Source: Candidatus Magasanikbacteria bacterium RIFCSPHIGHO2_01_FULL_41_23 (GTDB taxonomy: Bacteria > Patescibacteriota > Patescibacteriia > Magasanikbacterales > UBA922). From it: a DNA stretch of 64,000 bases. Shown here in pieces: positions 34,027 to 35,874 of the stretch; within the stretch, counting starts at the first letter, position 1, and every line of letters begins with the position of its first letter. The notes beneath the pieces were generated by a model. That model was not told the DNA's origin. It made no database searches and saw only the letters and a program-made list of their open reading frames with translations. Location: NCBI GenBank assembly GCA_001782805.1, contig MFPT01000019.1, positions 1,801 through 65,800 of the forward strand, given 5' to 3'. The position numbers and the translations under genes are program-made.

Positions 34027-35874
34027 ATGGAAATTCGCAACATTGCCATTATCGCGCACGTTGATCACGGCAAAACCACTTTGACCGATGCTTTGATGCG
34101 CCAAACCGGTATGGTAACGGATGAAACAGTAACCATGGATTCCAACGCTCTGGAAAAAGAACGCGGCATTACGATTTACGCCAAAAATGGCAGTTTATTT
34201 TACCCCTCGACCCATTCGATTGGGGCTCAGGGCTCAGGGCGAGAACCTACAAAAATAAATATTGTTGACACACCTGGCCACGCGGATTTTGGTTCAGAAG
34301 TGGAACGCGTTTTGCGCTCCATTGATTCCGTGCTTTTGATTGTGGATGCGCAAGAAGGGCCTATGCCGCAAACAAAATTTGTGTTAAAAAAATCTTTGGA
34401 ATTGGGACTTAAACCGATTGTAGTTTTAAATAAAATTGATAAACCGGCCGCTGATGTCCAACGTTCGCACGATCAAGTGTTGGAATTGTTTATGGATTTG
34501 GGCGCGAATGATGAACAATTAAATTTTACGACCGTGTACGCGATTGGCCGTCAAGGAATTGCCAAATTAAAAATGGAAGATGAAGGAAAAGATTTAACGC
34601 CATTACTGGATACGATTTTACGTTTAGTTCCGCCTGCGCCACATAATGTGGACGCGCCATTCCGCATGCAGCCGTTTAATTTAGGTTATGATAATTACGT
34701 TGGTCGTTTGGCAGTCGGTCGCGTATATGAAGGAAAAATTAACGTGGGCGATAAAGTAATTGTGAAAAAACCGACCGGTGAAACGCGCACTGGAAATATT
34801 ACGAAAATTTTTACGTTTAAAGGAACGACGCGGATTGAAGATACACAAGCCTCGGCCGGAGACATTGCTATGATCGCGGGAATCGCGGACATTGATATTG
34901 GGGAAACGATTTGTGTGTCGGCGGATCAAGAACCATTGCCTGCGATTAAAGTTGACGAACCAACAATTTCCCTGAATTTTTTGGTGAATAATTCGCCGTT
35001 TGCCGGACGCGAAGGAAAATTTGTGACCAACAGTCAAATTCGCGAACGCTTGGAAAAAGAATTGGAAGTGAACGTGGGTTTGAAAATTGATTTTTCCGCG
35101 TCTGATCATTATAAAGTATTTGGTCGTGGCGAATTGCATGTGGCGATTTTGTTGGAAAATATGCGGCGCGAAGGTTTTGAAATTCAAGTTTCGCAACCAC
35201 AAGTTATTATTAAAGAAATACTTTCGACAAGCTCAGGACAAGTTATTAAAGTAGAACCATTTGAAGAAGTCACGGTTGATGTTCCCGATGAATTTGCCGG
35301 CACAGTGATTGAAAAATTGGGACGACGCAAAGCCCAGATGACTGATATGCGTCAAAAAGACGGCCAAACGCGCATTATTTTTGAAATGCCCACACGGGGA
35401 TTGTTAGGTTATCGCGGTCAATTTGTCATGGACACGCGTGGCGAAGGAATTTTATGCAGTCGCGTTTTGGAATTTCGTCCGTATGTCGGTGAAATTGCCA
35501 AACGTGATGTTGGTTCTATGGTTTCCATGGTGGATGGCAAAGCGCTTGGTTTTTCTTTATTTAATTTGCAGGATCGCGGTGTTTTGTATATTCCTCCCGC
35601 GACCGAAGTGTATGAAGGCATGGTCATTGGTAATGTCAGTAAAGGCCAGGACATGGCGGTGAATCCAATCAAAGGAAAACAACTCACGAATATGCGCGCT
35701 AGTGGAACAGACGAAGCATTGACTTTGGTTCCTCCTATGGAAATTACATTGGAACGCGGTTTGGAAGTGATGGCCGAAGATGAATATCTGGAAATTACGC
35801 CCAAAAGTATCCGTTTGCGCAAGCAGTATTTGAAAGAAAATGAGCGCGTGCGCGCCGGCCGAAGCAGTAAATAA
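34027..35874 (+). CDS. typA: Translational GTPase TypA/BipA carrying two short in-frame repeat-derived insertions
   Basis: AIIAHVDHGKTTL, DTPGHADF, NKIDK. Collinear with BipA throughout, except the inserts PSTHSIGAQGSGR (34203-34243) and LSTSSGQV (35222-35244). Confidence 0.9.
   Translation: MEIRNIAIIAHVDHGKTTLTDALMRQTGMVTDETVTMDSNALEKERGITIYAKNGSLFYPSTHSIGAQGSGREPTKINIVDTPGHADFGSEVERVLRSIDSVLLIVDAQEGPMPQTKFVLKKSLELGLKPIVVLNKIDKPAADVQRSHDQVLELFMDLGANDEQLNFTTVYAIGRQGIAKLKMEDEGKDLTPLLDTILRLVPPAPHNVDAPFRMQPFNLGYDNYVGRLAVGRVYEGKINVGDKVIVKKPTGETRTGNITKIFTFKGTTRIEDTQASAGDIAMIAGIADIDIGETICVSADQEPLPAIKVDEPTISLNFLVNNSPFAGREGKFVTNSQIRERLEKELEVNVGLKIDFSASDHYKVFGRGELHVAILLENMRREGFEIQVSQPQVIIKEILSTSSGQVIKVEPFEEVTVDVPDEFAGTVIEKLGRRKAQMTDMRQKDGQTRIIFEMPTRGLLGYRGQFVMDTRGEGILCSRVLEFRPYVGEIAKRDVGSMVSMVDGKALGFSLFNLQDRGVLYIPPATEVYEGMVIGNVSKGQDMAVNPIKGKQLTNMRASGTDEALTLVPPMEITLERGLEVMAEDEYLEITPKSIRLRKQYLKENERVRAGRSSK

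Follow-up and report, generated by a model that had tools for sequence, protein, structure and literature searches.

How a conserved, essential gene for a ribosome GTPase comes to carry fifteen codons at a turn where its relatives have two is the question raised by typA (bipA) of Candidatus Magasanikbacteria bacterium RIFCSPHIGHO2_01_FULL_41_23 (Patescibacteria, candidate phyla radiation). The gene lies in a stretch of 64,000 nucleotides (nt) of contig MFPT01000019.1, with a GC content of about 41%, and this whole stretch is called the window below. Our work indicates that the insert is most likely a loop that a very small mobile repeat of the non-autonomous kind left behind, namely a decayed and stuttered copy of a 24-nt unit that is tolerated by the GTPase.

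The insert in the G domain of TypA

The typA open reading frame (ORF), at 34027..35874 on the plus strand, encodes 615 residues with the Pfam domains GTP_EFTU, EF-G_D2, EFG_C and BipA_C; the frame is intact and all G motifs are invariant. An initial annotation had singled out a 41-mer at 34203-34243 as an in-frame addition to the G domain coding for PSTHSIGAQGSGR, and the sequence is indeed found there. When codon limits are respected, the insert PSTHSIGAQGSGREP extends over 34204..34248 (plus strand), and its 45 nt stand in place of the 6-nt KD turn between the G-domain strands beta2 and beta3. We call this position site 1. After TAC (Y59), the codons read CCC TCG ACC CAT TCG ATT GGG GCT CAG GGC TCA GGG CGA GAA CCT (P60-P74), and ACA AAA ATA AAT (TKIN) follows directly on the 3' side. 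Relatives have two codons here, usually KD, hence a net gain of 39 nt. The predicted tryptic peptide of the loop is NGSLFYPSTHSIGAQGSGR.

As had been proposed, E. coli BipA has no equivalent residues, since alignment with the sequence of PDB entry 5a9v leaves a 13-residue gap at the insert. The comparison can be extended to related genomes: the closest relative (protein P0002, DNA L001), 90% identical, shows one 39-nt gap exactly at site 1, and the nearest relatives, P0002-P0030, are all without the insert. In an AlphaFold2 model of the window TypA, residues 60-74 are coil between strands 55-59 and 75-79, and the predicted local distance difference test score (pLDDT) is below 50 at residues 62-72.

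A 24-nt repeat unit in the window and across phyla

The insert had been taken for a variant copy of a repeat family. We defined this family operationally as a 24-nt module with consensus CCTTCGACAAGCTCAGGGCAAGC(N) and a 20-mer core, TTCGACAAGCTCAGGGCAAG. With up to 3 mismatches allowed, the core occurs five times in the window, at 4755 (+), 8763 (+), 18444 (-), 35223 (+) and 39081 (-), where 0.01 occurrences are expected, and a family profile (nhmmer) recovers five clearer copies at E = 1.5e-6 to 0.011. We assign the site-1 insert to the same family from a bipartite match together with positional homology with clear copies at the same TypA codon. The bipartite pattern CC.TTCGA.{0,15}CTCAGGG, selected after the copies had been seen, has four matches in the window, all of them family copies and one of them site 1, with a 6-nt spacer; it never arose in 300 first-order Markov simulations. 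Similarly, GCTCAGGG occurs four times against 0.44 expected, each time within a family copy. The initial annotation had paired the insert with the intergenic copy described below. The blocks shared by the two are real, but the intergenic CTCGACCC-TTCGA differs by a one-base indel and not by an A/T substitution, and the copy in leuS is the better internal partner, with GACCCATTCGA matching at 11/11 positions.

Comparison with a simpler 27-nt insert at site 1 of another TypA gene (L124), which reads CCTTCGAC|AGGCTCAGGGCGAGAA, resolves the window insert into three parts, all on the plus strand. The 5' half of an outer unit, CCCTCGAC (34204..34211), aligns with CCTTCGAC, and the 3' half, GGGCTCAGGGCGAGAA (34230..34245), is identical to AGGCTCAGGGCGAGAA at 15 of 16 positions and is of a GSGRE subtype that is also present in L144, L170 and L196. 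Between them lies an internal stutter or partial second copy, CCATTCGATTGGGGCTCA (34212..34229), of which CCATTCGA is common to the leuS copy. The window insert is thus of the L124 type with 18 additional internal bases, and it also contains a 7-nt tandem, GCTCAGG GCTCAGG. Within the unit itself, GACAAGC...GGCAAGC forms a direct repeat, though an imperfect one, and the family often shows partial reiterations (for example in L003, in L020 and at 4739-4792 and 39045-39089 of the window). These features support an origin of both the 18-nt stutter and the doublet by slippage, and the suggestion of slippage made at the outset is therefore a reasonable one.

The other copies of the window are clearer, and one of them lies in typA itself, which the initial annotation, underestimating the extent of the phenomenon, had not included. 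This second copy, CTTTCGACAAGCTCAGGACAAGTT (35221..35244, plus strand), codes for LSTSSGQV in place of the DG turn just before EFG_C, which starts at residue 409; it matches 19/20 core positions (E = 2e-5). Relatives read I-DG-V-K at this site 2, L214 being an empty allele, and 21 consecutive nt of the copy are identical to L127, with flanks 67% identical. Strain variants of the window TypA retain both inserts. The copy in leuS, CCATTCGACAAGCTCAGGGCAAGT (8760..8783, plus strand; THSTSSGQ), matches the core at 20/20 positions (E = 1.5e-6) and puts THSTSSGQVS where a [DN]G turn would precede CERCG, which adds 24 nt net. Among 120 listed LeuRS homologues, itself included, the window protein alone has this insert, the others reading V[DNG]G; the same site is filled in a Parcubacteria genome (L104, TRSTSSGQVAT). 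The LeuRS of the window (8242-11133) also has a NUDIX domain at residues 389-504, right behind the editing domain, and many Patescibacteria LeuRS homologues, of 1000-1350 residues, have fused alpha/beta-hydrolase or HAD-type domains instead.

The intergenic copy (4752..4775, plus strand; 18/20 core positions, E = 1.9e-6) lies between infB and a thioredoxin gene, within a stuttered composite at 4739-4792 and a long hairpin at 4723-4808 (z = -3.6). On the minus strand, a copy at 18424..18447 (18/20, E = 3e-5) adds GLALSSSK to the leader of a prepilin-type protein, MNMNKKGLALSSSKGFTLIELL, whose leader reads MNMNKK-GLALSSSK-GFTLIELL and whose N_methyl motif covers residues 11-35. Also on the minus strand, a stuttered copy, VSLSRSELVELSS (39045..39089; 17/20, E = 0.011 plus a second partial match), belongs to an AddA/UvrD-like gene and falls in the linker between the UvrD_C and PD-(D/E)XK domains (limits 310-684 and 759-1019). 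The in-gene copies of the window are therefore found at two beta-turns of TypA, a turn of LeuRS, a prepilin leader and a helicase-nuclease linker.

Some other features of the window may be mentioned here. A GC-rich stretch of atpH (delta subunit) at 25548-25607 reads CCCTCGACTTCCCTCGGGACTCGGGACAAGC on the reverse strand and looks like a decayed family copy in reverse orientation, which the profile did not detect. Within the ATP synthase operon, a 539-residue ORF without Pfam match (27271-28890) is flanked by a 498-residue ORF (25748..27244), which follows the Pfam-confirmed atpH, and by a 314-residue ORF (28928..29872); from position alone we take the two flanking ORFs to be atpA and atpG. Directly downstream of typA, 35840-36433 encodes a protein rich in Gly and Arg that has a treble-clef zinc finger (PF23477), and since this ORF overlaps the 3' end of typA by 35 nt, its true start probably lies further downstream. 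GC skew is positive to about 58 kb and negative beyond, where the genes switch to the minus strand.

The unit is not confined to this genome or phylum. In 596 Gb of sequence, taken as one genome per species, the exact 20-mer was found at at least 120 loci in at least 18 phyla, where about one chance match is expected if base composition is assumed to be uniform. The hosts belong to Acidobacteriota, Alpha-, Beta- and Gammaproteobacteria, Planctomycetota, many Patescibacteria lineages, Chloroflexota, Bacteroidota, Cyanobacteriota, Verrucomicrobiota, Omnitrophota, Latescibacterota, Calditrichota, Lentisphaerota, Methylomirabilota, Desulfobacterota, Spirochaetota, Deinococcota, Elusimicrobiota and Margulisiibacteriota. 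Isolates with the exact 20-mer include Sphingopyxis granuli, Citromicrobium and Chakrabartia, 15 viral contigs carry it, and unannotated copies are present on replicons of cultured Sphingobium, Novosphingobium, Methylotuvimicrobium, Polaromonas and Comamonas. The hosts are for the most part metagenome-assembled genomes (MAGs), as would be expected of an assembly, contamination or adapter artefact. We give this explanation practically no weight: the sequence is present in isolate genomes and complete replicons, the identical window TypA protein is recorded on 12 contigs under 4 NCBI accessions, from several samples and pipelines (RIFCSPHIGHO2 Magasanikbacteria MAGs), and the insert is in frame, internal to its contig and diverged between lineages.

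Alignment of 128 copies with their flanks shows that CCC, the 20-mer and a following C are conserved and nothing beyond; the length of 24 nt follows from clean insertions and from 24-nt tandem arrays. Five of the six reading frames of the unit are open, giving PFDKLRA, PSTSSGQ, LRQAQGK, ACPELVE and LALSLSK, and about half of 131 exact copies (64) lie in open frames of at least 200 codons. Frame use in these long ORFs is biased towards PSTSSGQ (35 copies), followed by LRQAQGK (13), ACPELVE (7), PFDKLRA (5) and LALSLSK (4), and the stop-containing frame is never used. Tandem arrays were seen with a period of 38 nt (L061, 4719-4814) and of 24 nt (L021, 249-292; L023, 1686-1729). In Acidobacteriaceae (L006, L041, L064 and L072), the 24-mer is inside a longer lineage-specific repeat, ...CCCACGGCTTGCGCCCC[unit]TGTGGGCTGCATTCTTGCGCCGCTTCGCGGC, and seems to have become part of larger local repeats there.

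Recurrence at the same TypA turn

In the 120 best TypA homologues, and bar one 4-residue PPAG, internal inserts of at least 4 residues occur at two places only, after BipA W65-D67 (site 1) and at I392-R395 (site 2). Site 1 is filled in 12 of the 120 (Patescibacteria), with peptides such as PSADSGQVP, PSASSGRPV, PSTGSGRES and PSASSHQVGGQAGRAP; at site 2 the inserts are LSTSSGQVI (window), PSTSSGQVI and PSADSGQVLV. At the DNA level, the bases directly after the Tyr codon of site 1 are CCTTCGGCAGACTCAGGGCAAGTT in L122, CCTTCGGCAAGCTCAGGACGTCCT in L123, CCTTCGACAGGCTCAGGGCGAGAA in L124 and CCTTCGGCAGACTCAGGGCGGGCA in L128, all four of which read CCT TCG ... CTC AGG.

This likeness in codons bears on the proposal that protein-level selection or local slippage produced the loop for a function in TypA, the resemblance to the repeat being coincidental. 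The GCTCAGG doublet does show local slippage, and the composition of the loop is typical of linkers. However, the codon choice CCT TCG ... TCA GGG recurs in lineages of 38-56% GC, the same bases are found outside coding sequence, on either strand and in five different frames, and the bipartite pattern was absent from every simulation, so that coincidence is a most implausible explanation.

Furthermore, the site-1 inserts are identical to the pan-bacterial consensus at 18-20 of 24 positions, while the third codon positions of their flanks are only 30-60% identical between alleles (mean third-codon identity in TypA flanks, 0.38-0.43). The nearest neighbours of each carrier (76-93% identity for all but one) are without insert, the sole exception being an identical carrier pair, and carriers are otherwise 69-82% identical to one another. 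Flank identity is 0.716 in filled-filled pairs and 0.711 in filled-empty pairs; a recombination patch around the insert, which would raise flank identity, was rejected on this ground. Site-1 carriers are polyphyletic, which favours independent gains.

When metagenomes were scanned for family units lying 16-40 nt upstream of the DTPGH motif, 69 contigs with 42 distinct units were obtained. In 68 of them, the unit is an insert in the site-1 turn of TypA, with 41 distinct peptides; the remaining one encodes the paralogue IF2 (InfB) on L168 (Ga0180732_1019955, 1755-1810), with PSASSGQVS at the equivalent hairpin turn before DTPGH. The high-GC subset is from Acidobacteriota, Candidatus Korobacteraceae being among the database names. 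In that lineage, the turn is empty in 71 of 118 TypA homologues, and the others form a decay series from PSTSSGQA through PSPGSGHA or PAPGSGHP to PGGDPNEF or TAADPDDV.

The Acidobacterial alleles show how the unit sits in the turn. An empty allele (L213) reads TAT CAC GAC ATC AAG, and filled ones read GAC|CCTTCGGCAAGCTCAGGGCAGGCT|ATC (L150) or CAC|CCTTCGGCAGGCTCAGGGCAGGCT|GAG (L201); in L167 the unit stands in place of GAC. These are clean 24-nt insertions whose exact point varies within the turn. They show no target duplication, and the unit's two halves are not inverted repeats of one another. Nucleotide-precise homing was therefore discarded, in view of the varying insertion point and also of the hit in IF2. 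L149 carries two different units in tandem, so that the site was hit twice or a unit was duplicated and then diverged; the tandem peptide PSTSSGQA-PSAGSGQA is found in both L149 and L157. In most Patescibacteria cases, the former codons of the turn are gone, with a net gain of 21 nt at site 1 (L124 against L215) and of 18 nt at site 2 (L127 against L214).

Could the insert instead be ancient at this site, inherited vertically with many precise losses or passed between lineages by short-patch recombination? Five Patescibacteria alleles do have the same junctions and net length, and some clades have common subtypes (SGRPV, SGRAV, GSGRE). Yet relatives up to 93% identical lack the insert, no patch of raised identity surrounds it, and its closeness to the consensus is set against flanks of far lower third-position identity; in addition, the exact insertion point differs among Acidobacterial alleles, and IF2 has an insert at the equivalent turn. 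We regard an ancient origin as very improbable.

That the loop is an insertion also agrees with what is seen farther afield. It had been recognised from the start that a loop of equivalent length in TypA of unrelated phyla would speak against this. Such loops are mostly not found: among 104 diverse TypA proteins, each representing a cluster at 50% identity, 92 have the canonical turn of two residues, and the longer loops of the remaining 12 are unrelated in sequence. Where equivalent loops are present, in Patescibacteria and Acidobacteriota, they are DNA-level copies of the same repeat. The turn is a recurrent hot spot and the family is pan-bacterial, both on a scale beyond the single variant copy first described.

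Mode of spread and relation to known repeats

In the scenario that we favour, the 24-nt module would have arrived in typA among the recent ancestors of this Candidatus Magasanikbacteria lineage, in a frame that spells a Pro/Ser/Thr/Gly/Gln-rich peptide of the PSTSSGQA type, and within the two-residue beta2-beta3 turn. Having landed in an open frame within a turn, it is predicted to be translated as a flexible, tolerated surface loop, probably close to neutral. Insertion would be frequent throughout the genome, with purifying selection sparing only those copies that lie at the few sites able to accept them (beta-turns, linkers, leader peptides) and in frames that are open and hydrophilic; the repeated hits at the same turn would be due mainly to this combination. 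As a non-autonomous element, the unit would depend on factors acting in trans to move or copy it. A DDE transposase is disfavoured by the lack of inverted ends, of target duplication, of a palindrome and of a linked gene, and our leading guess is a process that works on single strands (HUH-type) or copies a template, with slippage, which would fit better.

Searches for a parent element or a linked function were negative. A master copy or longer parent element was rejected because flanks from different taxa share nothing except more copies of the 24-mer, and a linked mobilisation gene because clustering of ORFs gave generic families only. In the 145 ORFs adjoining copies, no Pfam family occurs more than twice, and REP-associated tyrosine transposases (RAYTs, of the IS200/IS605 type) are not among the most frequent Pfam families of these ORFs or among the ORF clusters, whole genomes not having been searched. 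Copies flanked by perfect inverted repeats are in modest excess (6% against 1.9%).

The structure of the copies as nucleic acid matters for another explanation, in which the 24-mer is a selected signal (an uptake, binding or modification site) under molecular drive like that of DNA uptake sequences, the typA copy being a by-product. Such a signal would be compatible with the proposed arrival of the copy. The site-2 copies of the window and of L127 share their 21 consecutive bases although synonymous sites in the flanks are saturated, the same core persists across many phyla, the unit includes two 4-bp palindromes (TCGA and AGCT), and some copies form inverted pairs, often so in Alphaproteobacteria, or hairpins. 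Against this, copies arrive as whole 24-nt blocks rather than by point mutation, and old ones decay freely, as from PSTSSGQA to PAPGSGHP and PGGDPNEF in Acidobacteriota. Moreover, coding copies fold no better than shuffled sequences (z from -0.5 to +1.2; typA site 1, z = -0.40). The intergenic copy is the sole structured one, and its hairpin is made by the flanks. Flanks generally form no hairpins; insertion into hairpin loops as a general rule was rejected, joined flanks folding like controls (p = 0.08 and 0.84). The whole 64 kb holds no match at gathering score to a tRNA or any other Rfam family, with only chance hairpin matches at 4690-4830, so that a known RNA family was ruled out in the window and at the intergenic copy. 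On balance, a selected signal seems improbable to us, if less so than the other alternatives.

Several points weigh against a decayed mobile repeat as the origin of the site-1 loop. The 24-mer profile alone scores the site-1 copy as half-matches only (E = 2.8 and 18), a weakness that we ascribe to the 18-nt internal stutter, which splits the copy. The AlphaFold2 model is only moderate, with a mean pLDDT of 68.9. Several independent Patescibacteria events share the net gain of 21 nt with loss of the KD turn, and random insertion followed by selection does not obviously predict equal net lengths; common descent within clades may lie behind some of the Patescibacteria inserts, for instance in the SGRPV and SGRAV groups. 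Finally, the identity of the 24-mer across phyla would call for a source or an enzyme to account for it.

A mobile repeat of this kind would account for one class of the odd insertions that conserved proteins show in soil bacteria and in the candidate phyla radiation. The 24-mer is presumably also the source of many short and spurious "hypothetical proteins" with the strings PFDKLRAS, LRQAQGK, PSTSSGQA, PELVEG or LSLSKG. A 24-nt unit that is identical across phyla and lacks the usual hallmarks of transposons raises the question of what copies it, and cultured carriers exist in which this could be addressed. The Acidobacterial TypA series, from fresh PSTSSGQA to unrecognisable loops, suggests how selfish DNA may become ordinary protein at permissive turns. 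We found no paper among those searched that contains the 24-nt DNA or its peptides, literature keyword matches being to related kinds of element only. We propose, tentatively and as a possibility short of an even chance, that the 24-mer is an undescribed pan-bacterial mobile module, identical to the letter in at least 18 phyla, that repeatedly puts PSTSSGQA loops of eight residues at the same beta-turns in universal proteins (TypA, IF2 and LeuRS). If so, this would point to a mechanism, both new and widespread, by which very short DNA is moved or templated, and loop insertions in conserved proteins would have a general source.

How does the unit compare with elements already described? Rickettsia palindromic elements (RPEs) are palindromes of about 100-150 bp that are known from Rickettsia only. 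As summarised in PMC3733652 after Ogata et al. 2000, they are dispersed repeats that stand in frame in apparently functional genes and also between genes. Copies of the 24-mer likewise add peptide segments at tolerated positions in intact genes, but the unit is of 24 nt, not palindromic (in typA an insert of 45 nt with z = -0.40) and present in many phyla. Repetitive extragenic palindromes (REPs) and REPINs are short (20-40 bp), high-copy and non-autonomous (PMC3733652, PMC3116915), and intragenic GTAG- or CGTC-tagged REPs are known, also in tRNA synthetase genes of sphingomonads (PMC3733652). The 24-mer resembles them in being short and non-autonomous, in lying partly within ORFs and in the inverted pairing of its alphaproteobacterial copies. 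REPs are defined by stem-loops of 8-9 bp, a GTAG or CGTC tag, a CCA tail and linkage to RAYT (PMC3733652); the 24-mer has neither such a stem-loop nor either tag, and membership in the CGTC type was rejected on that definition.

[quoted passage not shown] Clean 24-mer events, in contrast, are without terminal inverted repeats or target duplication. MITEs do make target duplications. The DNA uptake sequences (DUS) of Neisseria and the uptake signal sequences (USS) of Pasteurellaceae are short over-represented words that favour certain frames and the less conserved protein segments when they lie in genes, and that form inverted pairs in intergenic DNA; they are specific to their lineages and arise mainly from point mutation under uptake bias, whereas the 24-mer is inserted as whole 24-nt blocks.

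The small dispersed repeats (SDRs) of Nostoc, reportedly described by Elhai in 2008, are said to be 21-27 nt long, to nest and to insert inside tandem heptamer repeats. In Microcoleus sp. (L074, 3612-3631), a copy of the 24-mer lies mid-way in a long CTGTCAA heptamer array, reportedly the very context described for the cyanobacterial repeats. By description, the 24-mer is like them, as a dispersed 24-nt unit with sharp limits and precise insertion relative to empty alleles. One of them, SDR5, inserts between bases 3 and 4 of HIP1, according to PMC4390886, which like PMC3116915 cites the 2008 work on these repeats. SDRs are, however, described as cyanobacterial, whereas the 24-mer is identical in at least 18 phyla and lies inside essential protein genes. 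The closest described kinds are thus RPEs, intragenic REPs and the small dispersed repeats of Nostoc.

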